Source of the DNA: Candidatus Zixiibacteriota bacterium
GTDB lineage: Bacteria > UBP14 > UBA6098 > JBKHBT01
Reading direction: 5' to 3'
Length of the DNA stretch: 64,000 nt
NCBI GenBank assembly: GCA_046542255.1
Contig: JBKHBT010000001.1
Location: 41,627 to 105,626 of the forward strand
Notes under the pieces: generated by a model
Seen by the model: the letters and a program-made list of their open reading frames with translations, nothing else
Told to the model about the DNA's origin: nothing
Database searches by the model: none
In this document: positions 159 to 51,600 of the stretch, one piece after another
Layout of the letters: each line of letters begins with the position of its first letter
Numbering within the stretch: position 1 is the stretch's first letter
Position numbers and translations under genes: made by a program

Positions 159-911
159 ATGAATACAATAGACTTCCTATTGACGGATATCTTTGCTTTC
201 GGCCTGGTTTTCCTCAGGATTACTGGCTTTGCTACAATGGCGCCATTTATTCGGGAAAACTATATTCCGCCGAGATTTCGTGTTCTCGGAGCGATATTAT
301 TCACGGCCCTTTTGTTTCGAAAGATAACTGGTGATATGCAGCCTGTTGGTTTTGCGGAATTCTTCTTCCTGGGAATAATGGAATTTGCCATCGGAGCCGC
401 CCTGGGCTTCGGGATGAATCTCATTTTCATGGCAATACGAAGCGCAGGCTCACAGATGGGACAGATGATCGGGCTTCGATTCCATATGATGAATACTGGC
501 GAAGAACCCATCGGCCTTGGCGAATTGCTTATGATATTCACTGCTTTTTTCGTTATTTCATCCGGCGGAGACAGATATATGATACAAGTTTTCATCGACC
601 TATACGAGAAAATACCGATAGGAGCTTTCAAGATGGGAGTAGTCTCGATGAGGCCGACACTCGAGCTGGGTACAGCTTTTTTCAAAGCGATTATCAAACT
701 ATCTCTACCGATTATTGGAGTAATTTTGACTTTCTATCTCCTGGTAGGCATCTTCCAGCACTTTTTCCAGAACTGGGACATATTTGCTATGGTATTTCCG
801 GGGGCGGTTTTTATCGGACTATGGGCTATCGCGCTTATGGCGCCGAATATTATAATCCAGGCATCGCAGATTTTCAAAGAGACAGTAAATTCGCTGGGAA
901 ATATATTTTGA
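159..911 (+). CDS. fliR: Flagellar biosynthesis/export protein FliR
   Basis: 250-aa polytopic membrane protein. N-terminus (FLLTDIFAFGLVFLRITGF) matches the FliR family. GGAGA RBS 5-6 nt upstream. Order is fliQ-fliR-flhB-flhA. Confidence 0.85.
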   Translation: MNTIDFLLTDIFAFGLVFLRITGFATMAPFIRENYIPPRFRVLGAILFTALLFRKITGDMQPVGFAEFFFLGIMEFAIGAALGFGMNLIFMAIRSAGSQMGQMIGLRFHMMNTGEEPIGLGELLMIFTAFFVISSGGDRYMIQVFIDLYEKIPIGAFKMGVVSMRPTLELGTAFFKAIIKLSLPIIGVILTFYLLVGIFQHFFQNWDIFAMVFPGAVFIGLWAIALMAPNIIIQASQIFKETVNSLGNIF

Positions 912-950
912 TTATAAAGCGAATTACATATAGCATAAGGAGGTGGTGAA

Positions 951-1979: not shown

Positions 1980-4020
1980 AATTGGAATGGGCCTTATAGA
2001 ACATTCAGACTATATTTTCCCGCTCGGGCTGGTTGTAGTCCTTGGCATGATGATTGTGCCTATTCCAACTGCTATGATGGATGTTATGCTGGCACTTAAT
2101 ATTAGTATGTCGTTTTTGGTTTTGCTTCTGGCTTCGTATATCAAAAAACAGCTTGAATTTAGCATATTTCCTGCGCTGCTTCTTGTTCTAACTTTATTCC
2201 GATTATCATTGAATGTCGCGTCAACGCGATTGATTCTGGGACAAGCATATGCTGGTAAGGTAATCAAAACCTTCGGAAATTTTGTTGTTACTGGCAATTA
2301 TGTGGTCGGCCTTGTAATATTTTTGATCATAGTGATTATCCAATTTATTGTAATTACAAAAGGTGCCGGGCGAATTGCCGAGGTAGCGGCCAGATTCATT
2401 CTCGATGCCTTGCCTGGCAAGCAGATGTCTATCGATGCCGATTTATCTGCCGGTGTTATCGATGAAGACGAAGCTCGTCAAATGCGAAAAGATATTGCCA
2501 AAGAAGCCGATTTTTATGGCGCGATGGATGGTGCATCGAAATTCGTCCGCGGCGATGCCATAGCTGGACTTATTATCACATTGATTAATATTGTCGGAGG
2601 CCTTGTCATTGGGGTTGCTCAGATGAAGATGACATTCGGCGAAGCAGTTAGCACATATACACTACTAACCGTTGGAGATGGGCTTGTATCGCAGATTCCC
2701 GCGCTTTTGGTATCGACTGCTGCCGGCCTTATGGTCACAAGGAGCGCATCAAAAAAGAGCCTTGGACGAGAGATTGCTGGCCAGTTTTTCAGTAATCCAC
2801 GCCCAGTCTTTATTACTGCCGGAATAATATTAATTGTTATGTTGCTCCCGGGAATGCCCAAAGTCCCATTTATGATGATTGCTGGAAGCCTCGGAGTTTT
2901 AGGATATGCAGTCAAGAAAGCCGGCGATAGCGCACCAGAGGAAGAAGAATTGCCCGATGAAGACGAAGGCGATGACGATATTCCTCTTTGGGCGCCAGTA
3001 GAACCTCTTGAAATCGAGCTTGGTTTTGATCTTTTGGAGCTGGTCGATGAGGAGCGGCCGGGCAATTTGCTCGAGAGAATCCCCGATCTTCGTAGAAAGC
3101 ATCTTCTTGAAACGGGTTTCCGAATACCTGCGATTCGTATTCGCGATAATCTCGGCCTGCCATCTTCGAATTATCGAATAAGCTTCTATGGCAATACTGC
3201 TGGAGAGGGTACAATTCTGATGAATAAATATCTCGCTCTTCCGCCGGAAGGTATGCAGGAGACTATGCTCGAGGGCGAAAAGACAGTCGATCCTGCTTTC
3301 GGTGTTCCCGCCGTATGGGTTCCGCCCGAAATGCAAATCGAGGCAGAAGACACCGGCCATACCGTTATCGAACCCGAAGCAGTACTAATCACGCATCTCG
3401 GCGAGCTGGTGAATCGTATGGGATATAAACTACTCGACCGCCAGAGCGTACAGGATCTTGTCGATCAGGTGCAGACGGAGTTTCCGGCGATTGTCGAGGA
3501 TGTTATTCCAGAGCAACTTCCATTGGGAGTGCTTCAGCGCGTACTTCAGGGATTACTCAAAGAAGGTGTACCAATTTCCAATATAACGGTCATTCTTGAG
3601 ACATTAGCGGACGTAAGCCAGCAGACCAAAGACCCGAAAATCCTCGTCGAAATGACGCGCCATGCGCTATCGGAAGAGATATATCAGATGTTTGTTGAGC
3701 CGGATGGCAAGCTCTATGCAGTCAGCTTCGACCCGAATCTTGAGGCATATCTTCAGAAATCGACACAAAACTCAAAGGATGGCTCATTCAATATCGCGCC
3801 ACAGACACTTTCGACTATTTTCCGAACGCTCAGGAGCAATCTCGACCGCATGAAGCGCGAAGGACATCCCGAGCTTCTAATTGTGTCGCCATCACTTCGC
3901 GGCAAGCTCCATGAAATCCTTGAACCACTTTTCCCACAGCTTGATATAATCTCCTATGCAGAAATGCCGCTACGCGCTCAATTGCAGTCGAAATGGATTG
4001 TATCGCTGAATCAGAAATAA
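1969..4020 (+). CDS. flhA: Flagellar export protein FlhA
   Basis: 683 aa. N-terminal TM domain followed by a large cytoplasmic domain typical of the FlhA/InvA/LcrD family. Overlaps flhB by 11 nt. Confidence 0.9.
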   Translation: MRHKIGMGLIEHSDYIFPLGLVVVLGMMIVPIPTAMMDVMLALNISMSFLVLLLASYIKKQLEFSIFPALLLVLTLFRLSLNVASTRLILGQAYAGKVIKTFGNFVVTGNYVVGLVIFLIIVIIQFIVITKGAGRIAEVAARFILDALPGKQMSIDADLSAGVIDEDEARQMRKDIAKEADFYGAMDGASKFVRGDAIAGLIITLINIVGGLVIGVAQMKMTFGEAVSTYTLLTVGDGLVSQIPALLVSTAAGLMVTRSASKKSLGREIAGQFFSNPRPVFITAGIILIVMLLPGMPKVPFMMIAGSLGVLGYAVKKAGDSAPEEEELPDEDEGDDDIPLWAPVEPLEIELGFDLLELVDEERPGNLLERIPDLRRKHLLETGFRIPAIRIRDNLGLPSSNYRISFYGNTAGEGTILMNKYLALPPEGMQETMLEGEKTVDPAFGVPAVWVPPEMQIEAEDTGHTVIEPEAVLITHLGELVNRMGYKLLDRQSVQDLVDQVQTEFPAIVEDVIPEQLPLGVLQRVLQGLLKEGVPISNITVILETLADVSQQTKDPKILVEMTRHALSEEIYQMFVEPDGKLYAVSFDPNLEAYLQKSTQNSKDGSFNIAPQTLSTIFRTLRSNLDRMKREGHPELLIVSPSLRGKLHEILEPLFPQLDIISYAEMPLRAQLQSKWIVSLNQK

Positions 4021-4074: not shown

Positions 4075-5457
4075 TTAGAAACTATACGTTGCTGACAGAG
4101 TCAATGCTGCAACATAGCCGTCATAGATGCCCGGAATATTGGTAATCAATGTGGAGTTGTCTTCATTGTATGGCTCTACATCCAGTTCGCCGAAATATTC
4201 CATTTCGAATGATGATTCGATCTGGATTTTGCCATAATCGGCAGAAAAACCAAGGTTGAATGCTGGATTATCATTGAAATCCGGGAGAAATAGATTCTGA
4301 TATTCCGGCACTGGCGGATGAGGCTCATAGAAAACACCACCGCGGAGTGCATATCTCGATAATCGCCATTCTGCCCCAAGGCTATATCGCCAATAGCTTT
4401 TCCATCCGACAGTAATTTGTTCCAAAATCGAATCTGTATCGGCATAGTAAACTGTAAGCTCATCGAGGACTTCCCAATCAGTATAGCTGGCATCGGCAGT
4501 TATAGTGATATCTTCTGTGATATCATAACCGACACCGAAACCATACATAAGGGGCCTTGGCAGAGACAATCTGGCATCCTCCCAGGGGCGAACGATATAG
4601 CCGCCATTTATTATCCCGAGACCTTCGCTAAGTGTTTGATTATAGAATTTATATACCTCTTCGCGGAATTCGCCTTCATATTCAAAATCGGAATCGTACT
4701 TGATGGAAGCTCCGAGTTGAATCTTATCAGTAGGTTGGTATTGTACTCCGGCATTGATACCCCAATTCAAAGACTGCATCTTGGCTTTTTGGAAAACAAT
4801 GCCAGTATCGGCCAGCATCTTTGTGGAATCCAGAGATGGCATATCGACATCGAAAGATGAATATGTAAAAGTTGTAGCCACTCCGATCGATAGGTTTTCA
4901 GTAATCTGATATGCTATAGCAGGCGAGCCAGTCATAGCAAAAATGGTTCCTACGAAATCTTCTTCTGGCAAGGCCTCGGTAGTTGTAAATTCGTATTCTC
5001 GGATATTATTTACAAGTTGCTTCGTAACATAATCCAAATCATGGTCCTTCATGACATCCCAGGTGCTTGCAACACCCAATGGTGAGTAGAAACCAAGTCC
5101 AAAAATCAGCTTTTTAGCTGCGATATTTGGCCGAAAACTGGAAAATATATGAGGCACAATGAAATCGCTGCTTGTCATCTGATGTTCTCCCGGGCGTATC
5201 ACATGAGCTGTTTTCAATAGCGTGTCGGCTGGGGTATATCGGAAATCATTATGGACCCACTGCCCTATCGCCTGTAATTTATAATCCGAATCGATATTGC
5301 TCAAACCGGCAGGATTCCAATAAATGGATGTAGGGTCATCGCATATTGCTCGATATGCTCCGCCCATCGAAATCCCGCGCGCACCGATTCCAGGAAGATG
5401 CATCCCAGCAGCAAAAACATTGATCACTATTGACAAAAGTAGGATGAATCGTTTCAT
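4075..5457 (-). CDS. Outer-membrane beta-barrel protein, FadL/PorV-like family
   Basis: 460 aa. Signal peptide. Motif GISMGGAYRAICDDPTSIYWNPAGL near the N-terminus, typical of FadL-like/PorV-like OMPs. C-terminal aromatic residue (…ATYSF). Alternating amphipathic beta-strand pattern. Confidence 0.5.
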   Translation of the reverse strand: MKRFILLLSIVINVFAAGMHLPGIGARGISMGGAYRAICDDPTSIYWNPAGLSNIDSDYKLQAIGQWVHNDFRYTPADTLLKTAHVIRPGEHQMTSSDFIVPHIFSSFRPNIAAKKLIFGLGFYSPLGVASTWDVMKDHDLDYVTKQLVNNIREYEFTTTEALPEEDFVGTIFAMTGSPAIAYQITENLSIGVATTFTYSSFDVDMPSLDSTKMLADTGIVFQKAKMQSLNWGINAGVQYQPTDKIQLGASIKYDSDFEYEGEFREEVYKFYNQTLSEGLGIINGGYIVRPWEDARLSLPRPLMYGFGVGYDITEDITITADASYTDWEVLDELTVYYADTDSILEQITVGWKSYWRYSLGAEWRLSRYALRGGVFYEPHPPVPEYQNLFLPDFNDNPAFNLGFSADYGKIQIESSFEMEYFGELDVEPYNEDNSTLITNIPGIYDGYVAALTLSATYSF

Positions 5458-13518: not shown

Positions 13519-14454
13519 TTGTTAAATATGAGAAGGATGAAATACATATTCTTATTCTCTTTGATCCTGATATGCTTCGGCGAACCGGGGACGGATGATT
13601 TCACGAGAATCTCGGTGGAGCCATTTTATGAGGCTACTGGCGGTGCATTTGCTGCAAAGAGCTTTGTAGAGCTAATTCCAAAGGCATCGGCTTCGAACTA
13701 TAATCCTGCTTTGCTGGACGGCCAGAGATCGATTATGCTTTCACATAGCAGCGTATTCGATAATCTCTATATCGCCGATTTCATAGCCTATGGCGACCGC
13801 TTCTCCGAAAAGATTAATTGGGGGATCTCTGCTCTTGTATCTGGCGGCGATGGCCTTATGGTAACTGCATTACCAGATGAAGAGGATAGCATTTCGATGG
13901 ATAATAGGCCATTTATTCTTGAAGAAAAATCGCATTACGATTTTATTATTAATCCATCGGCAAGCTATCGGCTTAGCGATAGAACGAAGGCGGGAATAAC
14001 TGTGCGTCTGTTCTATCGCAAAATTATGGATGAGAATGCTATGGGCGGTGGATTATCCGCAGGCCTTAGCCATAGCCTTAGCAAGAAACTCAATCTTGGC
14101 GCATATATCAGGAATCTATCGACTATGCCTGTTATTTGGAGCACTGGCACCAATGAAACTGCCTTGCCATCATTCCGATTGGGCGGCGTATATAGATTGG
14201 CCGAAAATGAAAATCTCACTGTCGAAGCAGCAGCAGATGGCGAATATTCACTCGATGAGAAGATTTTTGATTATGGTGGTGGCATCAGGGCACAGTTTAT
14301 AGACAGATTTTCGGTTCTTTTGGGATATGGCGACAAAGGTTTCTCAGCCGGTGCGGCTGCTATTTTCAATGGAATCGGCATATCGGCATCATATAGTAAT
14401 CAAAGCGAGTTGAATAATTCATATAGGATAGCGCTATTCTATAGGTGGAATTAA
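13519..14454 (+). CDS. Outer-membrane beta-barrel protein, PorV/FadL-like (NPALL motif)
   Basis: 311 aa. Signal peptide. TGGAFAAKSFVELIPKASASNYNPALL parallels the GGAYRAI…YWNPAGL motif of the 4075..5457 OMP. Beta-strand periodicity. Start ambiguous (TTG 13519, or ATG 13528/13537). Confidence 0.4.
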   Translation: MLNMRRMKYIFLFSLILICFGEPGTDDFTRISVEPFYEATGGAFAAKSFVELIPKASASNYNPALLDGQRSIMLSHSSVFDNLYIADFIAYGDRFSEKINWGISALVSGGDGLMVTALPDEEDSISMDNRPFILEEKSHYDFIINPSASYRLSDRTKAGITVRLFYRKIMDENAMGGGLSAGLSHSLSKKLNLGAYIRNLSTMPVIWSTGTNETALPSFRLGGVYRLAENENLTVEAAADGEYSLDEKIFDYGGGIRAQFIDRFSVLLGYGDKGFSAGAAAIFNGIGISASYSNQSELNNSYRIALFYRWN

Positions 14455-20062: not shown

Positions 20063-22153
20063 TTAATATCTTCTATATTCAGCGCTTTTTGGCCTTCTGA
20101 CCCGGACCTCATAGAGATACCAGTTATTTCTTTTGGTAACATCGAGTTTCTCTGGATCGAATTCTGCTTCGAGCATAGCTTCTTTTATTGCCCTATCGAT
20201 TATTTCATTGCCACAACTGGCGAGTATTTCGACTCTATCGACCTTGCAAAAAGCATCAACGAATATCTTTAGCCTTGTAACCTTACCACGCAATTGGGTG
20301 CTCCATTCCTGCTCGGGATACTCCAGCTCGAGAGGTTCGACCGGGTATAATCGAAGCGGTGGCAAATCACCGGCAAGAAGGCTATCTCTTTCTTTTTGAG
20401 TCAGCTCGCCTGGTTTTCTCCTTTCATCGTGGTCTTCATCACGGCGCTTGAATTCAGCAAGCAGAGAATCCGATGGTTTAGGCCTTTCATCCTCGAATTC
20501 GATATCGCGTTGCCCGAGACGAATCTGTGCGAGGCTATCGTAAGATGTACCAGGATACTCAGCACTAATAGCAGAATAAACCTTTTCAGCCTTCGATGAT
20601 TCATTCATATATTCGACATATATGTAGGCAACAGCAAGCATAGCCTTTGGAACAAGGTAGCTCTCGGGATAGTCGCGAATGACCTTTTGATATGTCTCGA
20701 GCGCCTTCTCGGGATTATTGTATGTAAAGAGATATTCTTCAGCATTTACAAAATAATATCCCACAGAACGCACCTCGGTTGAATCTAAGGCTGCACCACG
20801 GCTTTGGAAATAGTCAACCGCACCGATTGCATAGTCGGTATCGGCATGTTTTTTCAAAAGGCTGGCATAGACAGAATCTGCTGTGTCCCAGTCTTCTTTG
20901 GAATTTGCATATGTCCACCCGAGTGAATACATGGCCTTGGGTGCCAGTTCACTCTTGGGCATTTCATCGAGCAATCTGCGATATTGATTGATTGCGCTAT
21001 CGGGCTGGTCGAGTTTTAGGACATACATTTCGGCCAACTCCATTCGAATTTCAGCCGGATTCCTTAGTGAATCAGTGCTGTCTGATAGAGCAATACGCAT
21101 TTCGATAATCTTTCGTATGGCATCAGCTCTCTCGCGGGATATGGCGGCGATTTCTGTTCCACGAGCTTCAGATTGTGATTTCTCGAACATCTCGAGTGCG
21201 AGTTCGAGATTGCCAGCATTGAAAGACATGACACCCAGATAGTAAAATGCCCATGCCGAAGCATTGGTATATGGGAATCTTTTGCCAACTTCGCGCCAAG
21301 TCTCGGCTGCTCTTGTGGTATCGTCTCGTTCATAGAAAATGCGGCCGATTCTGACCTCGATATCACCCATTTGATTAGCAAAAGAACGATTCTTTTTCAT
21401 CTTACGGAAATGCTTCAGGGCATCATCGAGCCTTGCAAGTTCGATATATGCCTCGCCAATTCGCATATTTGCAGTAAACCATTGCGTATCATTCAAATCA
21501 TTCGGGTTGATAAATTCTTCCAATTCAATAACTCGTTCGTATCTTGTGAATTGATAAGCGATATCCATAAGGCGAAATGCGGCAAGGCTGACAAGCGAGC
21601 TTTTCGGGTATTCCTCGATGAATTTCTCATATTCCAGCTCAGCCGATACATAGTCATCCTGTTCATAATAGCTTTCGGCTATCATGAAGGCTGCTCTTTC
21701 GGCATAGTCTTCATTATCTTCTTTTATAAGTTCAAATGCAGATTCCGCCTTTTCGAATTCGCCAGCTTTCATCCATGCGATAGAGCGCCAGTATTGAGCT
21801 TCATCGGCAAATTTACTATCGGGAAAGCTTCCTAAAAGCTCCTCGAACTTGGTCGCCGATTTGACCGGTTCATCAGTCCAAAGAAGGCTCATGCCAAGAA
21901 GGAATAGCGCATCATCGACATATTTGCTCGTAGGATAGAAAGCGAGAACCTTGCTGGCTTTTTCTATCGTAATATTATAAGAAGATTTTGCTTCTTCGGG
22001 AATAGTTTCACTTTCTGATTTTTCCCGGATTTTGTCTGCGTGTTTATAATGTTTTTTAGCAAGAAAAAAAGTATTATAATACACGCAGCCGCTTCCGGTT
22101 AAGAGAACTATAAATATTGTTAGTAATAGCTTATTTATCTTCGTCATCTTCAA
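20063..22153 (-). CDS. Lipoprotein with multiple TPR repeats and C-terminal TonB-C-like domain
   Basis: 696 aa. N-terminal LLTGSGC lipobox-like. Many TPR-like units (YxxAxxxY/F spacing). C-terminal LPPLRLYPVEPLELEYPEQEWSTQLRGKVTRLKIFVD…VEILASCGNEIIDRAIKEAMLEAEFDP fits the TonB_C pattern (YP..A…G.V.L.F.V…G.V..V.V…G…LD.AA..A….F.P). Confidence 0.55.
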   Translation of the reverse strand: MKMTKINKLLLTIFIVLLTGSGCVYYNTFFLAKKHYKHADKIREKSESETIPEEAKSSYNITIEKASKVLAFYPTSKYVDDALFLLGMSLLWTDEPVKSATKFEELLGSFPDSKFADEAQYWRSIAWMKAGEFEKAESAFELIKEDNEDYAERAAFMIAESYYEQDDYVSAELEYEKFIEEYPKSSLVSLAAFRLMDIAYQFTRYERVIELEEFINPNDLNDTQWFTANMRIGEAYIELARLDDALKHFRKMKKNRSFANQMGDIEVRIGRIFYERDDTTRAAETWREVGKRFPYTNASAWAFYYLGVMSFNAGNLELALEMFEKSQSEARGTEIAAISRERADAIRKIIEMRIALSDSTDSLRNPAEIRMELAEMYVLKLDQPDSAINQYRRLLDEMPKSELAPKAMYSLGWTYANSKEDWDTADSVYASLLKKHADTDYAIGAVDYFQSRGAALDSTEVRSVGYYFVNAEEYLFTYNNPEKALETYQKVIRDYPESYLVPKAMLAVAYIYVEYMNESSKAEKVYSAISAEYPGTSYDSLAQIRLGQRDIEFEDERPKPSDSLLAEFKRRDEDHDERRKPGELTQKERDSLLAGDLPPLRLYPVEPLELEYPEQEWSTQLRGKVTRLKIFVDAFCKVDRVEILASCGNEIIDRAIKEAMLEAEFDPEKLDVTKRNNWYLYEVRVRRPKSAEYRRY

Positions 22154-23472: not shown

Positions 23473-26400
23473 TTATCTTATCAAAGTTAGTGTACCTTTG
23501 CATACTCTTTCTCCATCGACTGTAATGATATAAAGATAAGTCCCGGATGGGAGATCTTTATCATTATCGGATTTGCCATCGAAAACCGATTTCTCGATTT
23601 CGCCAGCATCGACTTCGATCGTTCTTGCTTTTTGGCCACGCATATCAAAAATCTCTATCTTGCCTCCAAGGCTATATAAATTGGGGAATGAAAAATCTAT
23701 ATCATCATTGTAACCATCATCATTTGGCGTAAATGGATTGGTCGAAAGGCCGCAATCAAGATCCGGCTCGACCCAGAATTTCAGTGTATCGGTGCGCCAA
23801 TTTGGTGAACAGAAATCGGGGCTATCCTCGGCATATACTATGACTGTAAATGAGTCATAGCCCGAATAATCGAAACCACACGCATTAAAATTGATATCCC
23901 AGGTGCCAGAAGAATCGGTTGTTTCCTCGATACAATCCAGTGATGTTACTGTTGCGATTGTATCATAATATGCTGAAAGGATATATGCTGCAAAAGCATT
24001 GGTATTGACATCCGAGAAATAATCCATCGCGCCGAACTCTACATAAGGAGCATCATCGGGTATCATCTCTCCCGGCTCAGGATAGCTAAACCAAAGCTGT
24101 GGCGGAGAAAAATCGAATACAAGATGCCATGTTCTTTGGACAGCTTCATAACCATAGATATCTGATAGGCCATTCAAACGGACAAGCAAACTTCCCTGGT
24201 CGAATGGTTCCGAAGGTGAGAAAACGATGGTATCCGGGGATGTCAATTCTAGCCGATAATCAGAAAGCGTAAAAATCTCGCCATCGATTTCAATTTCGAT
24301 ACTGGATTCTTCAACTTGCTCTTCGCTATGGATAGAAAAAAACAATACATGATCTTCTTCGCTCTGACAGGCAATCACAGAGCCATTTGGCGGATGTATA
24401 AGCTCGATATCTGGCCTCGGCGCAATATTTACTTCATGAATCTCGGATAAAAGAAGGGTTCTATCATCGCGATTATCCAGATCGAAGTCATTATCATAGC
24501 AATGGAGTCTCCACGATACAATGATATCGCCATCTTGTGCTGGAATCGGTGCGCGCGATCGATATATTGAATCGCCATCGACGAAGTCATGGAATTCGAT
24601 ATAGATGCGATTGCTCGAAATATCCAGCTCACCATCGGTATCCCATTCGATATAGGCTGCCTGAGCATCCGAGAAATCTCCGGTAATAAAGATTCCAGAA
24701 CTATCTTCCAATGCAAATTCTATATAAAATGCGCTGTCCTGTACCCAATTAGATGGACTGGGTGAATGCATTATGGGCGGCAAAGTATCATCATCAGGAA
24801 TATAGAAATTTGTATTATAAAATGTATCATTTGCGCCACAGTATTCTGCACAATCGGCAATGTAAATGGTAAAATCGAAAGAATCATCCTCTGAATAGCT
24901 AAATGCTACATCCGATGGATCGAAATATACCGTATCGCCATTTATATCGAGATGTGAATTGTCGAGAGTATCGGAATCAATTGTGAAAATCATTGTCTCG
25001 AAATCAATACCACACATATCGTCATCAATTATAAACCAAACCGGCACATCAAATTGGCCGATAATTACAGAATCAGGCTCCGGAGACACCTCCAAAAGCT
25101 CAGGTGGTTCAATATCAATATAAAATTCTGTGAAAATTTCATCGGTATGTTCATTGCCGAGTGTATCGCTGATTTGCATAAGCGATGCTGTAATACTGTC
25201 GCCATGTCCAAATGGGGCAGTCGGCCTGAAAATCAGTGTATCGTCATTTAGCGATAGTTCACTCGCCGGCCAGGGAAATGTGGAATCATTGACATTGAAA
25301 ACCATCGACTCTAAATCGAGGCCATTGTCATCATAGAGCCATAAACGGATTTCTTGATTTTCGCATGAAGAATATGCTCCGCTATCTGGCAAAATGAAAT
25401 ATGCTTCCGGGCCGACCATATCGACTACGAAAAAGTATTCGAAAGTGGTTGAATTGGCTTCACAGAAATCCGGCGCATCGGCTATCTGGATTTCGATATA
25501 GGCTGTGTCTTCGAAGGAGAGGCCAGCGGCTGCAAAATCTATGTAAATAGTGTCTTCGGAATCAGAAAGCCACATGCCTGCTGGGCTATCGATATATCGC
25601 AACTCGGTATCATTAACATCGACAATAATACTCGATGGATCGATGCCAGCAATCTCATCGTAAATATAAATAGACATCACCGGGTCGCCAGCGGCCGTGC
25701 CACCGATTCTTGGGTATATTGGAAGCACATGAGGCGGCGATGTATCGACATAGAAACGGCCTTCTAATGTATCAGAAATAGGATTGCCAAGAGAATCCTC
25801 AGCGGCTGTAACCATCACATCGACAGTATCGCCATGCGACCATGCCGGCGAAGGCGTATAAATTAGCGTATCGCCAATATAGCTTGCAGATGGCGATGTG
25901 GTTGTAAAAAACTCTCCATCGATATAGAATTCTATGCTCGATTCAACAACGCCATTGACATCGCGAATGCTAAGATAAAGCGGGCCTTCATTGCATGATG
26001 TAACCGTCTCGTCCTCTGGCATAATAAAATTGGCAATAGGCCCGGATAGATTTATCGAGAAGCTCCAGCAAGTATCTCCTTCGTTCTCGCCACAATAGCC
26101 GGCAAGGTCCTGGAAATAGGTGCAAACCTCGACAGTATCGTAATCATCGAAATGAGGCACGACATCTTCACTAAGATAAAATCTTGTGCCATCCCAAATA
26201 GGATCATAAGAAACGCCATCTATCATGATGCTGACTGTGGATGTATCGAAGCCGGAAAGCTCATCATCCAGATTGAAATAGATATCAGTGATGCTATCGC
26301 CTATTACATAGCCGGCTTCGGGATATTCATCGACTAGATATGGTGGCGCAAAGTCCCTTGTTACGCTAAAAGCTTCGCTTTCCAGAGTATTGGCGACATT

Positions 26401-28554
26401 ATCCGAAACAGAAACATAAACCGTAATCTCATCACCATCATCCATGGAAATTGGCGGTTCGAATTCAAGGTTTCCATCTTCGAATGTCATATAATCTGGA
26501 TAGTCATACTCCGAGCCTTCGACAGTTATCGTGATAGAAGTCTCATCGACACCCATCAAATCGGAAATCTCGAAAATCATAGAAAGCTCGGGACATGAAG
26601 TATAGATTGTCGGCTCGATAAGCTCGACCTCTGGTGGTAAGGTGTCCACAAAGAAGCTCCAGCAGCGAGCATTGGAATTTCTGTCACAATATGCAGCATT
26701 GTCGATAGCAGTGATACAAACTTCGACAGAATCACCAGTATAGATACCTGCTTCATCACCGTCTATGCTGAGTGCGCCAGTAACTGGCTCAAATAGAATG
26801 CCGTCTTCGATAAGTATGCCATTGACAGTTATCAGAAAGCCAGTAGCATCGATTCCCGAAAGGTCATCAGCGATATTTGCATGGATATCGAAGCTGGGAT
26901 CGGCTATTAAAGTGTCTGGATTTGGTGATAAATCGGTTATCTCCGGCGGCAATAAATCGAAAATGATTTCGAAAGTATCCGGGTCATAAATACTGAAGCC
27001 TGCGGTATTTCGGACATTAGTCAATACTCCTGTAACAGTATCGCCATGTTCGAAGCAGCCTTCTTCGCCCTCGGGTTCAAAAAACAGCGTATCGCCGGAA
27101 ACTCTGAAACTGGTATAGTCGAAGCCGTGGCCTTCTATCATAGCATCCATAGTACCGGGTTCTATATCGATAGAATCAGGCATTTCGACAAGCCATGCCA
27201 CTCTTGCACATTCGCAGCTTGTAATCTCAGTAGGGTAGAGCAGTGTAACTTCGGGAGCCGGAACATCTGCTTCTATTAATATCCAATGGAAAATCGGCCT
27301 GCCAACGCCTCTGTCCATAAGGACACGATATTGGAAATATCGAAATTCCATATCCAGGTCTTCGCCTTCTTCCACATCGAACCAGTCTGTCCAATCTACA
27401 TCATCGAGGGATATGCGCGCCTGTACTGAAAGGCTTGCAAGCTCGGGTACGGTCTCCGACCAGGTTATTCTTTCAAGTGTGCCGATTCCTGGCAGTGATT
27501 TGACATCGGATTTATAATCCCCAACACCGACACCGCCATTATAGGCATAGTACATGGAATTGATCATGGCCTTGGCTTCCCATTCTATTGGCCGGAATGT
27601 CTCCGGAGAGCCCCTTAACTCTTCAGACTCATGGCCAGTGCTGAAAAATGAAAAGAAGGAATTGTGTTCCGGGTCATTATAAGTATGCATATATGGGATT
27701 CCTGCGTCATTGACATACCACAAATCGCCTCTATCGTGGACTTCGCCAAAATCGTGACACTCTGTAACATCGAACTCTTCGGGCAATACAAATGGTACAT
27801 TCATAACAATTGCATCACCATCTGCGCCGGGCGCCCTTTGCACATGCGTCCATGTTTCATCGGGTACGCAGCAATCTACCCATTCGGCTCTAAGGCCAGT
27901 AAGCTCTGTCATATTGTTAAAATTGGGATGTTCGAAATTATCACTGACTGAACAGCATAGCATTTCCCATGGCCATAAATCATAATGGTCCCTTCCCCAT
28001 CTTTTGGCAATAACATCATGGGTAAAAACAACTCCTTTTCCAAGACGAGCAAATTCTTCGACGGCATTTCTGGCTTCTTCGGAAATATCATTGCTCGAAC
28101 CACCATAACCATTAGCAATGCCGAAAAATATAATATGAAAAAAGGAAACTGGAAGGGTAACTGTGCCACCTGTATATGCGTTTTCGACAGTAAGCTCATC
28201 AGAAGCAGAAGAAATCGAATTGAAATCGTCAAACTCTATTAGGTAAATTCCGAATGTCAACCTGGGCGTGCCATCATCGGAATATTCATTGATAGGGTCA
28301 CTGAGACATTCGACACAATGGTCTTCTGGATAAATTTGAAGGACATAAATTGTATCGTTTTCAGTAAATATCAAAGCGCCATTATCCGGATCTGGTAATC
28401 CATCGGGATCCGGGCTTATGACATCGATATTTTCTGCATCGCCAGTGGAGAAATCAAAAACAGTAGTTTCATAAAATTCTATTGGATAAGCGATTATGCT
28501 TATCGTAAATACAAAAAGAATAAGTCCGATGCATAATTTGGCATACTTAGCCAT
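23473..28554 (-). CDS. Giant secreted cell-surface protein with T9SS type-B C-terminal sorting domain
   Basis: 1693 aa. Signal peptide. N-terminal alpha/beta region (HIIFFGIANGYGG…GKGVVFTHD). Many ~100-aa Ig-like modules. The last ~90 aa are FTPNDDGYNDDIDFSF…GKIEIFDMRGQ…GTYLYIITVDGERVCKGTLTLIR, the gliding-motility/CHU_C-type T9SS type-B CTD (FTPNGDGxND motif). Confidence 0.75.
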   Translation of the reverse strand: MAKYAKLCIGLILFVFTISIIAYPIEFYETTVFDFSTGDAENIDVISPDPDGLPDPDNGALIFTENDTIYVLQIYPEDHCVECLSDPINEYSDDGTPRLTFGIYLIEFDDFNSISSASDELTVENAYTGGTVTLPVSFFHIIFFGIANGYGGSSNDISEEARNAVEEFARLGKGVVFTHDVIAKRWGRDHYDLWPWEMLCCSVSDNFEHPNFNNMTELTGLRAEWVDCCVPDETWTHVQRAPGADGDAIVMNVPFVLPEEFDVTECHDFGEVHDRGDLWYVNDAGIPYMHTYNDPEHNSFFSFFSTGHESEELRGSPETFRPIEWEAKAMINSMYYAYNGGVGVGDYKSDVKSLPGIGTLERITWSETVPELASLSVQARISLDDVDWTDWFDVEEGEDLDMEFRYFQYRVLMDRGVGRPIFHWILIEADVPAPEVTLLYPTEITSCECARVAWLVEMPDSIDIEPGTMDAMIEGHGFDYTSFRVSGDTLFFEPEGEEGCFEHGDTVTGVLTNVRNTAGFSIYDPDTFEIIFDLLPPEITDLSPNPDTLIADPSFDIHANIADDLSGIDATGFLITVNGILIEDGILFEPVTGALSIDGDEAGIYTGDSVEVCITAIDNAAYCDRNSNARCWSFFVDTLPPEVELIEPTIYTSCPELSMIFEISDLMGVDETSITITVEGSEYDYPDYMTFEDGNLEFEPPISMDDGDEITVYVSVSDNVANTLESEAFSVTRDFAPPYLVDEYPEAGYVIGDSITDIYFNLDDELSGFDTSTVSIMIDGVSYDPIWDGTRFYLSEDVVPHFDDYDTVEVCTYFQDLAGYCGENEGDTCWSFSINLSGPIANFIMPEDETVTSCNEGPLYLSIRDVNGVVESSIEFYIDGEFFTTTSPSASYIGDTLIYTPSPAWSHGDTVDVMVTAAEDSLGNPISDTLEGRFYVDTSPPHVLPIYPRIGGTAAGDPVMSIYIYDEIAGIDPSSIIVDVNDTELRYIDSPAGMWLSDSEDTIYIDFAAAGLSFEDTAYIEIQIADAPDFCEANSTTFEYFFVVDMVGPEAYFILPDSGAYSSCENQEIRLWLYDDNGLDLESMVFNVNDSTFPWPASELSLNDDTLIFRPTAPFGHGDSITASLMQISDTLGNEHTDEIFTEFYIDIEPPELLEVSPEPDSVIIGQFDVPVWFIIDDDMCGIDFETMIFTIDSDTLDNSHLDINGDTVYFDPSDVAFSYSEDDSFDFTIYIADCAEYCGANDTFYNTNFYIPDDDTLPPIMHSPSPSNWVQDSAFYIEFALEDSSGIFITGDFSDAQAAYIEWDTDGELDISSNRIYIEFHDFVDGDSIYRSRAPIPAQDGDIIVSWRLHCYDNDFDLDNRDDRTLLLSEIHEVNIAPRPDIELIHPPNGSVIACQSEEDHVLFFSIHSEEQVEESSIEIEIDGEIFTLSDYRLELTSPDTIVFSPSEPFDQGSLLVRLNGLSDIYGYEAVQRTWHLVFDFSPPQLWFSYPEPGEMIPDDAPYVEFGAMDYFSDVNTNAFAAYILSAYYDTIATVTSLDCIEETTDSSGTWDINFNACGFDYSGYDSFTVIVYAEDSPDFCSPNWRTDTLKFWVEPDLDCGLSTNPFTPNDDGYNDDIDFSFPNLYSLGGKIEIFDMRGQKARTIEVDAGEIEKSVFDGKSDNDKDLPSGTYLYIITVDGERVCKGTLTLIR

Positions 28555-28568
28555 GATATGAAATCTCC

Positions 28569-29129
28569 TTAGATATTATATCTGATACCGATTAAAATAG
28601 TTGAAAAGGATGGATTAGAGAGCACGGCTCTTGTTGAGAAATTAGCAGTGAAGTCTTCATTTAGTTTATAGTCTGCGCCCAGCTCTACCCTCGGCTGAAA
28701 ATATGCTGGTTCGGAAGAATCTTCATCTGATGTTTCACGCGGATAATCTCGTAAAATAACATTAACACCTAAGCCAGCTCCAATATATGGCTTCACTTCC
28801 CAATCGACCTCCGGCCTGAATAGGCCTTTTACTGCACCGCCGATGACTGTTAGCTTTACCGGGCTGATGCCTTCTTTAGGGTCACTTTCATCGGCCTTCA
28901 TATACTCTAATTCGAGAGCTAATGATAGTTTTGGTATTATTGTACCAAAATCAGCCATCAGATTAGTTGCGAAACCTGGTGCATATTTTGCATAAGGTAT
29001 TGAAAGCCCGCCTCTGATACCAATATTCTTCAAGCCCATATCTGTGCCACTTTTCGGTGCAAGGTTATCGATTCCCTGTGAATATACAACTGTCGCAAAT
29101 AAAAAGACAATGAGCAATGTTTTTCTCAT
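28569..29129 (-). CDS. Small outer-membrane beta-barrel protein (OmpW/OmpA-barrel-like), co-transcribed with the type-B T9SS protein
   Basis: 186 aa. Signal peptide. Alternating hydrophobic beta-strand pattern consistent with about 8 strands. GGAGGG RBS 5 nt upstream. Only 14 nt separate its stop from the next ATG. Confidence 0.55.
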   Translation of the reverse strand: MRKTLLIVFLFATVVYSQGIDNLAPKSGTDMGLKNIGIRGGLSIPYAKYAPGFATNLMADFGTIIPKLSLALELEYMKADESDPKEGISPVKLTVIGGAVKGLFRPEVDWEVKPYIGAGLGVNVILRDYPRETSDEDSSEPAYFQPRVELGADYKLNEDFTANFSTRAVLSNPSFSTILIGIRYNI

Positions 29130-29267
29130 TATTAGCCCTCCGGTTATTTTATCCGCACAAGCGGAAAATACTTTTTTACATAATACAATATAATATGCAT
29201 AGAAATTTAGTCAAGCTTTACAATGGCTTAAACCAAAGAAAAAAGTCTCATTAAACTAATAAATAAA

Positions 29268-35885: not shown

Positions 35886-36782
35886 ATGAAACGATCGATT
35901 TTGAAAATATCGCTCGCACTAATTATAGTTTCAGCATTTTTCTTCACCGGCTGCGACACATGCGTAAATTGCAATGACCGATATGATGATTGCTGCGATG
36001 AAGACTATTATCCACCGCCTGTTCCCTATGATGTCTATACCACTACCTATGATGGCTTCATAGAGATCGATTGGCATCCGATCTATTCCAGCGATTTTGA
36101 TTATTATAGAGTTTGGCGCGGTTACTATGAAAGTGGAGAATACACACTCATAGGCGAAACATCCACTGCATTCTTCACAGATTATAATGTCAGAAATGGC
36201 CAGACTTACTATTATGCAATCAGCTCTGTCGATTATTGGGGCAATGAAAGCGAAATGTCATATGAAATCATCTACGACACGCCTAGGCCAGAAGGCCATA
36301 GATATACAATCTATAGCGGTGATTTGTATCCTGAGTCATCTGGTTTTGACTTCTCGGAGAGATATGTCGTACCCTGGGATGATGTAAACTGCGATGTATT
36401 CTTCAGCTATGATAGCGATATCGAAGAGTTCTATCTTCAGGCCGGAAACGATATGACAGATATTATGGACTATGGCTATACAAGTGATCTTCAGGATGTC
36501 GATTTTGCCCCGGAGACAGGATGGGACCCGGAAGGCTGGGAAATTGCACAGAGAGGCCATTCCTATATCATATGGACATCCGATAATCATTTCGCACATC
36601 TGCGAATAACCAGCATGTACGATGACAGGATCATATTCGACTGGGCCTATCAAACCGATACTGGCAATCCAGAGCTTTTCCACAGGACGGAGAAAGAATT
36701 GCCTGTTCGAGATATGATAACAGAAAGAACAATCGAAAGAAATAATAACTATTCAGAAAATATCACCATGGAGGAAAAATGA
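35886..36782 (+). CDS. Lipoprotein with fibronectin-III-like domain
   Basis: 298 aa. Signal plus FFFTGC lipobox. Cys-rich stretch (CDTCVNCNDRYDDCCDED). FN3-like YRVWRG…TAFFTDYNVRNGQTYYYAISSVDYWGNES. GGAGG RBS. Confidence 0.5.
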   Translation: MKRSILKISLALIIVSAFFFTGCDTCVNCNDRYDDCCDEDYYPPPVPYDVYTTTYDGFIEIDWHPIYSSDFDYYRVWRGYYESGEYTLIGETSTAFFTDYNVRNGQTYYYAISSVDYWGNESEMSYEIIYDTPRPEGHRYTIYSGDLYPESSGFDFSERYVVPWDDVNCDVFFSYDSDIEEFYLQAGNDMTDIMDYGYTSDLQDVDFAPETGWDPEGWEIAQRGHSYIIWTSDNHFAHLRITSMYDDRIIFDWAYQTDTGNPELFHRTEKELPVRDMITERTIERNNNYSENITMEEK

Positions 36783-38137
36783 GACGCGCAATATTAATCG
36801 CAATAATTGCAATAGCTGCAATAATCCCAATCACGGCGCAGGCCGATTATGCCCTGATATTCCATTACTCGACCGGATCACCTTATGTCCCTTACTATCC
36901 TTATGTTTACACCGACTACGAATACTACTGGGACTACTATGACCTTATCGTAATGGATGATTTTTGGGATCCATTCCCTTGGTTTACTCGCCACTGGGTA
37001 AGGACTTACTATAGCCCCTGCGGATGGTATCGTTATCACTATTATGATTATCCATGCCATGGCTGCACGAGAGTCTATGTCAATGGCCGTTATCGCTATC
37101 GCTATCCAGAACCACGGCGAACCAGATATGTCCATCGAAGCTCGAATTATCCTACAAGGAGTGAAATAGTCCGCGAAAGATATGTCGAAAGGACAAGAAG
37201 TACTGCTCCTACAAGAACAGTTACCAGAACAAGGACGACTTCATCGACCAGAACACCGGAAACCAGAACAAGGACAACACCTGCGACCAGAACTACAGAT
37301 TCAAGGCTCTACAGAGAAGGCGAATCATCCAGCAGAACAGAATCTTATCCCGAAAATTTAAGCACAAGAAACCGTACTGAATCGAGAGCACACTCGACAG
37401 AATCCACAAGGGATATCACCCCCGATCGTAATGATGAAGTAACTTCGAGAAGGCCAAGCGAAATTGGTTCCAGCCCGAAAACTGCCACCAGTTATTCATT
37501 AGATGATACCGAAGAGCGTTCAAGCAGCCCTCGAGGAACAAATATCGACAGTAAAACACGAGATATAGAATCTGTTTCTGAAAAACCAGAAAAGCCCACC
37601 AGCATTTCCAGAGAATCTTCGGCCGCTAATATCGATAATTCCAATAGAGCAAATGTCAAAGAAGAAAGCGAAACTTCTGATGGGGGCTGGGAAGAATACT
37701 ATCGTGGCAGGTCTTTCGAAAGAGAAGAGAAAAGAAGCTCAAGAACAATCGAAAAACCATCGACTTCGTCCAGAGCATCTTCGACGATATCAAGATCGCC
37801 AGCTCCAGAATCGAAATCATACACCCCTCCGTCTCCATCGAATTCTTCGCGAAGTATTTCCACTTCACCATCCAGCCGCTATGGCACAAAACCAATGAAA
37901 AGCTACGAAACCAAAGATGATGATGACGACAAAAAGAGCACGAAAAAATATATTGCTCCTTCAAAAAGCAAAAAGAAATCCACAAGTAGTAGCAGCTCAA
38001 AATATACACCAACATCCAGAAGCAAAACATCTGGGTCATCTTCCAATAGCTCCAGCAAATCGCCAGCTAGCAGAAGTACACGAGGTTCGAGCAGCAGTTC
38101 CAATTCCAGTTCATCACCCAGAACAAGGTCGAAATGA
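36779..38137 (+). CDS. Secreted intrinsically disordered protein: Tyr/Trp/Arg-rich N-domain, (T-R)n tract, Ser-rich tail
   Basis: 452 aa. Signal peptide. About 26 Tyr in the first ~118 mature residues (…PYVPYYPYVYTDYEYYWDYYDL…RYRYRYP…). Four Cys. Then RTRSTAPTRTVTRTRTTSSTRTPETRTRTTPATRTT. Then a long S/T/K/R-rich tail. Start overlaps the upstream gene stop (ATGA). Confidence 0.55.
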   Translation: MRRAILIAIIAIAAIIPITAQADYALIFHYSTGSPYVPYYPYVYTDYEYYWDYYDLIVMDDFWDPFPWFTRHWVRTYYSPCGWYRYHYYDYPCHGCTRVYVNGRYRYRYPEPRRTRYVHRSSNYPTRSEIVRERYVERTRSTAPTRTVTRTRTTSSTRTPETRTRTTPATRTTDSRLYREGESSSRTESYPENLSTRNRTESRAHSTESTRDITPDRNDEVTSRRPSEIGSSPKTATSYSLDDTEERSSSPRGTNIDSKTRDIESVSEKPEKPTSISRESSAANIDNSNRANVKEESETSDGGWEEYYRGRSFEREEKRSSRTIEKPSTSSRASSTISRSPAPESKSYTPPSPSNSSRSISTSPSSRYGTKPMKSYETKDDDDDKKSTKKYIAPSKSKKKSTSSSSSKYTPTSRSKTSGSSSNSSSKSPASRSTRGSSSSSNSSSSPRTRSK

Positions 38138-48699: not shown

Positions 48700-51600
48700 A
48701 TGAATAAAAATACTGTTTTTGCGTTTTTGCTGTTTGTATTAATCTTATCTACAACCTTATTTTGGTTTGCATGCCAAAAAACTTCTAATCCCATTGGGGT
48801 TCAGGAAGATAAAAATTGGATTATTGATTCTCTTTATACCGTTCCATCGAGTTTTCCTTATCAGGGGATTGGGTATGTATATGCAGATGTAGTCGATGAA
48901 GAGACTGGCGAACCATGCGATGATCCATCGATTTATGTTACATTTTCCAGTCCCAATGATACCAGTATTTTTAGCAATTCCATTTCTTATGTCAATAGCG
49001 ATGGAATCGCTGCCTCTCGAGTCAGTCTGAGAAATATTACCGATACAACTGAAACCCTGGTTGTTATAGATGCGACTATTGAATATCCCAATACAGACTA
49101 TGAAAGTTATTATCTAAGCGTTGGTGACCAGGCAGCATCTAAAGCTGCTGATATCGAGCTGGAGGCAAGGCCGGATACCGTTTTTGCTGATTCGTATGAT
49201 ACCGTTATGGTCTCTTGCACAGTAATCGATTCATTTGGAAGCACGATTGAAAATGTCAGGGTTTACCTTGAAAGCGTAAGCCGAAATTTCACTATTCCAT
49301 CTGGCAATTATTATACCGATGAAACCGGAGTAGCGCATGTGCCGATTCCGGCGCCAACTGCGCCGGGTGAAGGCGTTCTTCGGGCTTATGTATATGGAGC
49401 CGCAGAAACTATCGTAGATGATACTGTTAGTTTCTGGTTCATTCCTGAGGCACCTGTTAGTAATATACAGCTTACTTCCGATGATATGCAGATTCCTGCC
49501 GATGGAATTTCTACTACAACGCTATCGGCAAGAGTAATGGTCGGTGAACCTTCTGCGCCTGCTCCCGATGGAACACCGGTTACATTCGAATCTGATAATG
49601 GTTCTTTCCAGGACTATGTTTTCGCAACAAGAAGAAATCCTAATCCATCCGAAGCAGAAGGCGATGGTATTCAGGAGAGCCAGTCGAGCTGGACTGCATA
49701 TACCGAAGACGGAGTAGCGAGAGTGATTTTGGTTAGTTCCACCGAAGCAGATTCTGTTACAATTACCGCAACCTCAGATCTTGTAACTGCAGAACATACG
49801 ATTTTATTTACACCGGGCGAACCTGCTATCATAGAGCTTGAATCCAATGAATCTTCTTTGATTGCAGATGCTTCGGATACAACTTCGCTAACAGCTACAG
49901 TGTATGACGAATATAGAAATACTGTCAATGCCGGGATCACGATTGAATTCGATGCCGATATTGGCTTTACTTCTCCTGCGGCCTCGAATACCAATGTTAA
50001 TGGTGTCGCGAGGTCTTTACTCAGAAGTGCTAATTCTTCGGGATTAGCTACAATCACAGCTTCATATGGTTCGATTGTAGATCAAGTCGAGGTCATCTAT
50101 CGTTCGACTACGCCACAAAGGCTGACAATGACTGTCGAACCGAATGAGCTACTCGCAGATGGCTCCGAAACGGCAACTGTCCGAGTCCAGGCTTTGGATG
50201 AAAACTATATCGCAGTTACCGATGGCGTTCCGATATCATTCGAGACTAATAAGGGAAGCTTCAGTCCTGCAGCATCTTACTTAGAGAGGCCTTTCGAGAA
50301 TGATGATAACGATGAGATAAATACCGATGGAATCGATGATGATGATTTGCGGATGTCGATTAGCGAAGCGATGCTGGAAGATGATTTTGTCGCGTTGACA
50401 GAAGGAGGCTTCGCAGAGGTTACTCTCAGGAGTGATACTATTGCTGGAGTCGCTGTCGTCAGAAGTTTCCACATGACAGGCGATAGTTACGATGCAATAG
50501 ATACTGCCAGAGTTCCTTTCTATCCAGGGCCACCACAAAGAGTTGAAGTGTCTTTCTACCATGATACGATAACTGCCAATGGAGCAGACACAACTACTGT
50601 TTATGCAACAGTTTACGATGAATATAATAATAGCATCGGTAGTGGCTATACAGTTGATTTCTCTACAGTAGAAGGTTCTGTTTTCCCGACTTCGCAGACC
50701 ACAGGCTCCGATGGTATTGCAAGAACCAAACTGACATCCAGCCTTAATTCTGGAATGCACTATATTACAGCTACGGCTTCCGGGATAACAGCCAATACAA
50801 ATATCTATTTTGAAGCATCCCGGCCAGCAGAAATAACGCTTAGAGCCGATGCCTATACTATGCCGGCAGATGGTATATCAGAGAATATTCTTACAGCCTA
50901 TCTTTACGATGCTGCCGGAAGGCCTGTCTCCAACGGGACCAGAGTGGAATTTGCCTGTTCTTTGGGTGAATTCAGCCTTTCTTCTTTGTATCGTAGAGGA
51001 ATTAGCGAAGAAGAGCCGGGCGATGGAAGAAAAATCGGCCATGGTTTGCGTAGCTTCTCTACAATGGATTCAGAAGAGATTTATTATGCTTATACCGAAG
51101 ATGGCCAGGTTTCTGCCAGCCTCATCAGCCCAACTTCAGAAAGTACTGATACTTCTATTTATGCCAAAGTTGTAACCGATTCGATTATACCACCGGCTGA
51201 CACGCTTGTTTTAGCAGATACTATATCGATTTCTTACATATCCGGTGATATTTCAAGAATTGGAGTTGTTGCAGCACCGACAAGTATTACTAATGATAGC
51301 TCCGAAATTACCGCGACTTTATATGATGAGCATGATAATCCAATGGGCGAAGGAATACTCGTTGAGTTTTCCACTACAATGGGTTCTGTTAATTCGCCAA
51401 TAGTAACCGATACATTGGGCCAGGCAAAAACATACCTATTCCCGGGTTCCGAGACAGGTACAGCTACGGTTACCGCAAGAGCTGGCGAGGTTTCAGGTTT
51501 TGTTAATGTAAATATTAGGCCGGTGAATGTCGGTGAAATTTACCTTTCTCTCTCATCATCAGAAATGACAGTAGATGGCGAGACAATCGACCTCGAAGCC

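Follow-up and report, generated by a model that had tools for sequence, protein, structure and literature searches.

A conserved pairing of a small outer-membrane barrel with a giant type-B-like surface protein in Zixibacteria

The barrel gene and the giant gene at the locus

We analyzed a stretch of 64,000 nucleotides (nt) from a metagenome-assembled genome (MAG) of Candidatus Zixiibacteriota (assembly GCA_046542255.1, contig JBKHBT010000001.1), referred to here as the window, in which a gene for a small outer-membrane β-barrel lies directly ahead of a gene for a giant surface protein whose tail resembles the type-B form of the C-terminal domain (CTD) found on type IX secretion system (T9SS) cargo. 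The source organism is a member of the Fibrobacterota–Chlorobiota–Bacteroidota (FCB) group but not of the Bacteroidota themselves. Both genes are on the minus strand. The barrel gene (28569..29129), recognized from its open reading frame (ORF), signal peptide and PF13505 match, encodes 186 amino acids (aa) from an ATG start and ends in a TAA stop codon at 28569..28571. A spacer of 14 nt (28555..28568), whose GGAG forms the ribosome-binding site of the giant in the sequence, separates it from the ATG of the 1693-aa giant ORF (23473..28554). An earlier reading of this DNA, made from the letters alone (the sequence-only reading), had placed the two ORFs at exactly these positions, and both are real genes. 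Homologs of both occur in the same arrangement in other MAGs, and together they constitute a conserved two-gene cassette in Zixibacteria and close relatives.

The barrel protein begins with a Sec-type signal peptide (aa 1–18, 29076..29129; MRKTLLIVFLFATVVYS followed by QG, that is, …VVYS/QG), which leaves a mature chain of 168 residues (28572..29075). There is no cysteine anywhere in the 186 aa, and the C terminus, G-I-R-Y-N-I, resembles a β-signal of the aromatic-x-hydrophobic type; the ends found in the subfamily include …GIRYNI and …GVMFDM. In a Pfam scan, residues 24–184 match the OMP_b-brl family (PF13505) at 32.9 bits, above its gathering threshold (GA) of 28.7, and an NCBIfam scan returned no match. 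Across the barrel subfamily, seven of 14 members match PF13505 at E ≤ 10. The sole identical database entry is annotated as [quoted passage not shown].

The AlphaFold2 model, computed from a multiple sequence alignment (MSA) of 105 sequences with a mean predicted local distance difference test score (pLDDT) of 86.6, consists of a signal helix and exactly eight antiparallel strands (residues 30–45, 52–65, 68–83, 87–103, 112–127, 143–155, 160–169 and 175–185) that are joined by short loops, the longest of which (128–142) is acidic. This model was used in place of a single-sequence prediction, which reached a pLDDT of only 32. In a Foldseek comparison with the PDB, the top matches are the OmpA transmembrane domain, NspA, OmpW, the N-terminal domain of OprF, OmpX and Ail, with E values from 2e-7 to 4e-5 and template-modeling (TM) scores of 0.5–0.78. 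The sequence-only description of the small protein as an outer-membrane β-barrel with a signal peptide is borne out by the PF13505 match and the eight predicted strands. Judged by its predicted fold, the protein is a lineage-specific subfamily of the eight-stranded OmpA/OmpX class (OmpA, NspA, OmpW and OmpX) of outer-membrane barrels.

The same reading had gone further and suggested that the barrel is a PorP/SprF-like partner of the giant, perhaps a reduced SprF, and here the family searches disagree with it in part: the PorP/SprF models are unmatched, and what is matched above GA is the generic family PF13505. None of the 14 subfamily members matches PF11751 or TIGR03519 in Pfam and NCBIfam searches, even at E ≤ 10, and the window barrel gives no match to either at E ≤ 0.1. 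As a positive control, PF11751 detects an 883-aa protein at locus L049 at 46.1 bits (GA 22.3); when the profile of the barrel subfamily was aligned to this PorP_SprF protein with hhalign, the probability was 0.8%. PorP-like proteins are 14-stranded barrels of the FadL type (PMC9143113), and sprF-like genes lie immediately downstream of the cargo gene (PMC12618676). The lack of homology, the strand count of eight rather than 14 and the reversed gene order, with the barrel upstream, rule out a reduced SprF. The barrel is at most a functional analogue of PorP/SprF.

The giant is annotated in the database, from the source MAG, as a [quoted passage not shown]. It has an ATG start, and its first 23 residues (MAKYAKLCIGLILFVFTISIIAY, 28486..28554) were assigned by inspection, without a signal-peptide predictor, as an N-terminal Sec signal or anchor. 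A globular head domain of ~400 residues follows (aa ~24–430, 27265..28485), delimited by dense invariant alignment columns and more conserved among orthologs than any other part of the protein. It weakly resembles DUF5057 (PF16480, 20.9 bits, under the GA of 27.9), and no sequence relative of it was found in the PDB. The stalk (aa ~431–1604, 23743..27264) is made up of ~10–11 tandem immunoglobulin (Ig)-like modules of ~100 aa each, defined by internal repeats at residues ~432, 533, 637, 734, 848, 937, 1048 and 1381; the Pfam matches include Big_5 (23.9 bits) and Big_13 (20.5 bits). This stalk is very acidic and contains cysteines. The mature protein has an isoelectric point of 4.05 and 30 cysteines.

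At the C terminus of the giant, ahead of the stop codon (23473..23475), lies a type-B-like T9SS sorting domain (aa 1605–1693, 23476..23742). Residues 1605–1686 of the 1693 match CHU_C (PF13585) at 38.5 bits, above the GA of 27. The type-B model TIGR04131 scores 30.4 bits, just short of its cutoff of 35, and the type-A model TIGR04183 scores 18.3, under its cutoff of 23. In all eight ortholog tails that were scanned, TIGR04131 is the best T9SS-CTD model (26.5–38.0 bits), with two of them (L009 and L010) rising above 35 bits, and the type-A score stays lower throughout, at <23 bits. Because CHU_C is above GA, TIGR04131 is the best model in the ortholog tails and type A never passes, the domain classifies by profile as type-B-like and not as type A. 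This agrees with the type-B assignment of the sequence-only reading, with the qualification that TIGR04131 leads in the giant without reaching its cutoff.

The head domain is widely dispersed on surface proteins and has many invariant histidine, cysteine and aspartate residues. We also observed it in paralogs that combine it with cohesin-like domains and a type-A-like tail, as at L047:3771-8384 in the genome that carries locus L005, and further at L038–L046, L017 and L018. Distant copies are present in cyanobacterial (Stenomitos) and Sericytochromatia MAGs.

Conservation, cargo specificity and expression of the pair

Ortholog loci of the giant were gathered by exact look-up and through scans of genomes and metagenomes that were seeded with the alignment of the giant, and every ORF in them was scanned with hidden Markov models (HMMs) of the barrel subfamily, the giant head domain and the giant CTD. 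Seventeen loci have usable upstream sequence and are informative; the contig of P0018 is too short for context. In 15 of the 17 (the window, L008, L005, L009, L011, L012, L013, L015, L016, L020, L022, L030, L033, L035 and L037), a gene for a narrow-subfamily barrel comes immediately upstream of that for a full-length giant ortholog in the same orientation, the two being −4 to +102 nt apart. Identity among the full-length giants is 33–44%. All paired barrels score >200 bits against the subfamily HMM, including sequences outside its training set. The paired loci fall into ~4–5 deep lineages, between which the barrels are 20–35% identical.

The flanks of the pair differ from lineage to lineage. 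The window has dnaE on one side and purB, a tetratricopeptide repeat (TPR) gene and alr on the other. In the largest clade (the main clade), a nitroreductase gene (−) precedes the pair, and purB, dxs and a radical S-adenosylmethionine (rSAM) gene follow it after zero to two genes. At L022 the neighbors are ruvX and yceG (−) before the pair and a GT9 gene after it, and at L033 they are unrelated genes. The barrel and giant genes are the only constant unit amid these flanks. In three lineages their spacing is of the tight, translational-coupling type, namely 14 nt in the window, 23 nt at L020 and a 4-nt overlap at L022. A recurrent association of the two genes, on which the sequence-only proposal of a partnership depends, is thus found in 15 of 17 loci, across deep lineages and next to different neighbors. 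Since the pairing is kept across deeply diverged genomes, the barrel and the giant probably work together.

The narrow subfamily is rare. A word-indexed homolog search with the barrel returned only the barrel itself, and an exhaustive phmmer search, which was used instead, gave only 12 matches with E < 1e-3 in a set of 1.84 billion representative proteins. Close homologs with usable context (P0019 and P0021) again precede a giant ortholog, and every member of the narrow subfamily with usable context adjoins the giant. A profile search drifted into the broad PF13505 family, and the matches it collected served as an outgroup and in the MSA and were not counted as members. These broader-family barrels of ~190 aa (75–83 bits), found in Zixibacteria, Krumholzibacteria and Latescibacterota, stand alone with no CHU_C neighbor. 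One small barrel of the broad family, P0096 in the Zixibacteria genome GCA_014730175.1 (L023:4314-8552), lies divergently beside dnaE, which in the window is the gene immediately ahead of the pair; this shared neighborhood may be a trace of an ancestral arrangement, or a coincidence. In three main-clade loci we observed a Metallophos (calcineurin-like phosphoesterase) gene of 455–474 aa between the giant and purB (L005:13106-14473, L009:11087-12475 and L030:10049-11473). Its product may be another T9SS cargo, because the C terminus weakly matches a CTD HMM (18–22 bits).

The genome GCA_015657875.1, which carries the pair at L005, shows how narrowly the barrel is tied to its neighbor. It encodes another CHU_C protein, P0014, of 2522 aa, with a TIGR04131 score of 41.3 bits (cutoff 35). 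The gene for the 883-aa control protein introduced above (L049:15580-18231, contig NPID01000634.1) begins 10 nt downstream of the gene for P0014, and no small barrel is present there. In addition to its PF11751 match, the 883-aa protein matches OmpA at 48.4 bits, so that it is a PorP_SprF barrel fused to a C-terminal, peptidoglycan-binding OmpA domain. The L047 paralog shares the head domain of the giant, has a type-A-like tail and lacks a barrel. The barrel therefore tracks one giant orthogroup, and follows neither type-B tails generally nor the head domain alone. The sequence-only suggestion of an adaptor class for type-B cargo at large does not hold, because P0014 has a canonical PorP_SprF(+OmpA) gene downstream.

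In the window, a promoter-like site (TTGACT-16 nt-TATATT, 10 of 12 consensus matches, minus strand) is located at 29187..29214, within the 138-nt gap between the stop codon of dnaE and the ATG of the barrel gene. It is a candidate start of a barrel–giant transcript, although this is weak evidence, as promoter-like sites in the region are not enriched over shuffles (47 against 38.5 ± 6.9). The 14-nt spacer of the window leaves no room for a terminator, and a search of the minus strand gave no terminator-like site between the two genes. Co-transcription of the two genes in the window is a reasonable reading of this layout.

Candidate roles of the barrel

Type-B cargo requires a cognate barrel (PMC12618676), and type-B CTD proteins, SprB and PG1035 among them, remain on an outer-membrane barrel, which provides their surface anchorage (PMC9143113). 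In Flavobacterium, “orphan” type-B cargo has no sprF-like gene directly downstream and uses a PorP/SprF shuttle encoded elsewhere (PMC12618676). By this definition the giant is an orphan too, because purB, and not a PorP/SprF gene, follows it (after 31 nt).

The reading that we favor, with a probability of about 0.5, is that the barrel is a cargo-specific outer-membrane partner or anchor of the giant, analogous but not homologous to PorP/SprF. Both proteins would be exported by Sec, and insertion of the barrel in the outer membrane would fall to the β-barrel assembly machinery (BAM) complex. Guided by its type-B CTD, the giant would cross that membrane via the T9SS, and a PorP/SprF-type shuttle encoded elsewhere would collect it from the translocon, as it does for the Flavobacterium orphans. 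The barrel would then most likely act as a docking or retention point that holds the fiber on the cell surface, or else as a factor for its stable display. It would in this way carry out the anchoring half of the role played by the 14-stranded PorP/SprF proteins, by means of an unrelated and much smaller fold. The analysis shows how the genes are built and arranged, which classes the fold and the CTD belong to, that the pairing is conserved and restricted to one cargo orthogroup, and that the lineage has canonical PorP_SprF; we infer the physical contact between barrel and giant, the step at which the barrel acts and a working T9SS in the source organism. A narrower form of the proposal, in which the barrel represents a non-PorP class of receptor that binds the CTD or an adjacent region of one giant adhesin and keeps it at the cell surface, outside Bacteroidota, is a considerably longer shot. 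Were it correct, the anchoring of type-B cargo would have evolved more than once on unrelated barrels.

The most serious competitor, which we regard as possible though clearly less probable than a dedicated partner, is that the barrel belongs to the generic outer-membrane proteins of the OmpX, OmpW or OmpA-transmembrane type, with a structural or small-solute function, and that it sits beside the giant through inherited gene order and has no specific role in the secretion or anchoring of the giant. Several observations that weigh against a partner or anchor are the same ones that speak for this alternative. The support for a dedicated partner is genomic context throughout. The family match is to generic PF13505 only, the fold neighbors are the OmpA transmembrane domain, NspA, OmpW and OmpX, and the loops of the barrel are very short. 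In neighboring phyla, the broad-family relatives stand by themselves as monocistronic genes. In two sister genomes (L010 and L014, from the MAGs JAFGQG01 and JAFGGQ01), the giant has no barrel next to it, and no degraded barrel was found upstream of it there. In the window the tight same-strand run does not end with the giant, since purB starts 31 nt after it and is followed closely by the TPR gene and alr, so that spacing alone proves little. Downstream of the giant, purB is also kept in two deep lineages, a partial synteny comparable to that of the barrel, and its retention means that inherited gene order can survive at such depth without a functional link.

Expression signals in the main clade add to this side of the balance. 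In nine main-clade genomes, a canonical intrinsic terminator is conserved between the barrel and the giant (L008:5904-5997, L005:7906-8000, and the corresponding spacers of L009, L030, L011, L013, L015, L037 and L012). It has the form AAAAAAAGGTTGCC-TTTT-GGCAACCTTTTTT, with a 13-bp GGTTGCC stem between an A-tract and a T-tract; the spacers are 70–100 nt long, some of the changes in the stem are compensatory and the RNA z-scores reach −4.3. It is absent from the window, L020 and L022. Given this terminator, the barrel and the giant do not form a simple obligate operon in the main clade, and the barrel may there have an expression of its own or be made in large excess, as would a generic, abundant outer-membrane protein; a terminator directly behind the gene is typical of outer-membrane proteins that are expressed independently and strongly. 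The sequence-only statement that the two genes are “almost certainly co-transcribed” is reasonable for the window with its 14-nt spacer; in the main clade, by contrast, the terminator stands between them, and in the window itself purB, the TPR gene and alr are spaced just as tightly.

The same terminator also contains an argument for the pair. Between its T-tract and the ATG of the giant there are only ~35–45 nt, which makes read-through from the barrel promoter the probable source of giant expression. In the main clade, then, probably either read-through yields the giant and the barrel is made in excess, or each gene has an expression of its own; the one gene pair appears to be run by a different expression logic in different lineages. 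What further counts against a generic outer-membrane protein is that in 15 of 17 loci the two genes remain neighbors in the same orientation while the flanks reshuffle, that the narrow subfamily is never seen away from the giant and that three lineages have spacing of the translational-coupling type.

We consider it quite improbable that the barrel is a general T9SS accessory, like the eight-stranded PorG or PorT of Bacteroidota, and not specific to one cargo. There is a precedent in PorG, an essential eight-stranded outer-membrane T9SS barrel on the PorK/N ring, whose Cys232 forms a conserved and essential disulfide with PorK and whose gene is in a bamA–skp cluster, not beside cargo genes (PMC12365241). 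Moreover, two of the 14 subfamily members marginally match the T9SS_PorG model NF052316 (best E 0.016), and the window contains PorZ-like, PorV/PorQ-like and PorW-like genes. The location of the barrel gene beside a cargo gene argues the other way, and so do its staying with one cargo gene across rearrangements and its absence beside other CTD cargo, neither of which one would expect of a component in general use. Membership of the PorG family itself is ruled out for the window barrel, which gives no NF052316 match and has no cysteine.

Marginally less credible still is a true replacement for PorP/SprF, in which the barrel would bind the type-B CTD and take the giant from SprA/Sov, as a new minimal class of shuttle. 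The missing PorP/SprF gene downstream of the giant would fit such a role, as would a conserved, cargo-specific pairing in a system where type-B cargo needs cognate barrels (PMC12618676). On the other hand, the known shuttles are 14-stranded and of the FadL type (PMC9143113), and an eight-stranded barrel with very short loops offers little docking surface; Flavobacterium orphans use a shuttle encoded elsewhere (PMC12618676), and PorP_SprF genes are present in the lineage. Finally, a PagL-like lipid A deacylase, or a different eight-stranded enzyme that alters the outer membrane surrounding the giant, can be dismissed. The weak PF09411 matches (five of 14 members, best E 0.006; the window barrel at 14 bits) all stay under the GA (23), an H-x-S motif is missing from the window barrel, and at alignment positions 145 and 147, where other members have a near-invariant Glu and His, it has Gln and Arg.

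Taken singly, each protein of the pair is ordinary, the one a PF13505 barrel and the other an adhesin-like CHU_C giant; what is new is their conserved, cargo-specific pairing, with an orphan type-B protein as the cargo. The recognition of type-B cargo and its retention at the surface are still being worked out, so far only in Bacteroidota and with 14-stranded PorP/SprF proteins, and we found no literature on T9SS in Zixibacteria. This lineage offers a natural comparison, since it holds both CHU_C cargo with PorP_SprF(+OmpA) and giant CHU_C cargo with an eight-stranded barrel. If the barrel is an anchor, the logic of a cargo plus its cognate barrel would apply to a fold and a phylum, Zixibacteria, that are both new to it, and a very small, tractable partner would be available for tests of CTD–barrel recognition. 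If it is not, the pair is a useful warning that tight, conserved adjacency, of which purB is another case, is no proof on its own that two genes work together.

Window context and comparison with known systems

Several other genes of the window recall, in divergent form, accessory components of the T9SS. A PorZ-like protein (44588..46855, plus strand) scores 114 bits against a cutoff of 260 and has a type-A CTD above cutoff. A 311-aa barrel resembling the PorV/PorQ family (13519..14454, plus strand) scores 44 bits against a cutoff of 90, and a FadL/Toluene_X barrel (4075..5457, minus strand) shows weak similarity to PorV. The TPR gene after purB (20063..22153, minus strand) encodes a lipoprotein that partially matches PorW/SprE and ends in TonB_C, and a PorW/SprE-like TPR gene follows purB at L037 as well. 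Apart from the type-A CTD of the PorZ-like protein, the PorZ-like, PorV/PorQ-like and PorW-like genes are all under their curated thresholds. By inspection of the translations, three ORFs at 159..4020 (plus strand) resemble FliR, FlhB and FlhA, and the source organism, going by its gene content, appears to combine flagella with T9SS-like secretion.

On the plus strand, a second ORF for a giant surface protein (48700..64000), of >5100 aa, runs off the end of the window. Its N terminus (…LFWFAC) is lipoprotein-like, and it has at least 27 Big_1/Invasin_D3 Ig-like repeats, a repeat family unlike that of the giant studied here. Two adjacent ORFs of 298 and 452 aa (35886..38137, plus strand) have signal peptides and Ser/Lys-rich tails, and neither matches Pfam or NCBIfam.

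Among known proteins, the barrel is closest to the OmpA transmembrane domain, NspA, OmpX, Ail and OmpW, with which it shares the fold, the PF13505 family, a Sec signal peptide and a C-terminal β-signal-like motif. It differs from them as a distinct and rare subfamily that is encoded ahead of one giant CHU_C protein. The genes of classical OmpA/OmpX-class members stand alone, and OmpA carries a periplasmic domain; the barrel departs from both features. PorG is likewise a small eight-stranded outer-membrane barrel in a T9SS context, and it shows that such barrels can be dedicated T9SS partners. PorG has, however, a conserved cysteine and a place in the bamA–skp cluster, whereas the barrel lies beside a cargo gene and has neither a cysteine nor a match to the PorG HMM.

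The likeness to PorP/SprF, the cognate shuttles and anchors in pairs such as SprB–SprF and PG1035–PorP, is one of arrangement, in that both are outer-membrane barrels encoded on the same strand beside a giant type-B-CTD protein, specific to a cargo and conserved across genomes. In structure they differ: PorP/SprF proteins have 14 strands and ~300 aa, and the barrel has eight strands and 168 mature residues with no sequence similarity to them. The PorP/SprF gene is found downstream of its cargo, but here the barrel gene is upstream and purB is downstream of the giant. The lateral opening of SprA is the presumed docking site of the PorV and PorP-like shuttles (PMC9143113). In Porphyromonas gingivalis the PorP–PorE pair ties type-B cargo to the cell wall, and the 883-aa PorP_SprF–OmpA fusion at L049 looks like a single-chain version of that pair. 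The nearest parallel to the giant itself is the orphan cargo of Flavobacterium, which also lacks a directly downstream sprF-like gene. The Zixibacteria giant differs from these orphans in having a conserved, non-PorP small barrel attached upstream, and nothing comparable is described for them in PMC12618676.

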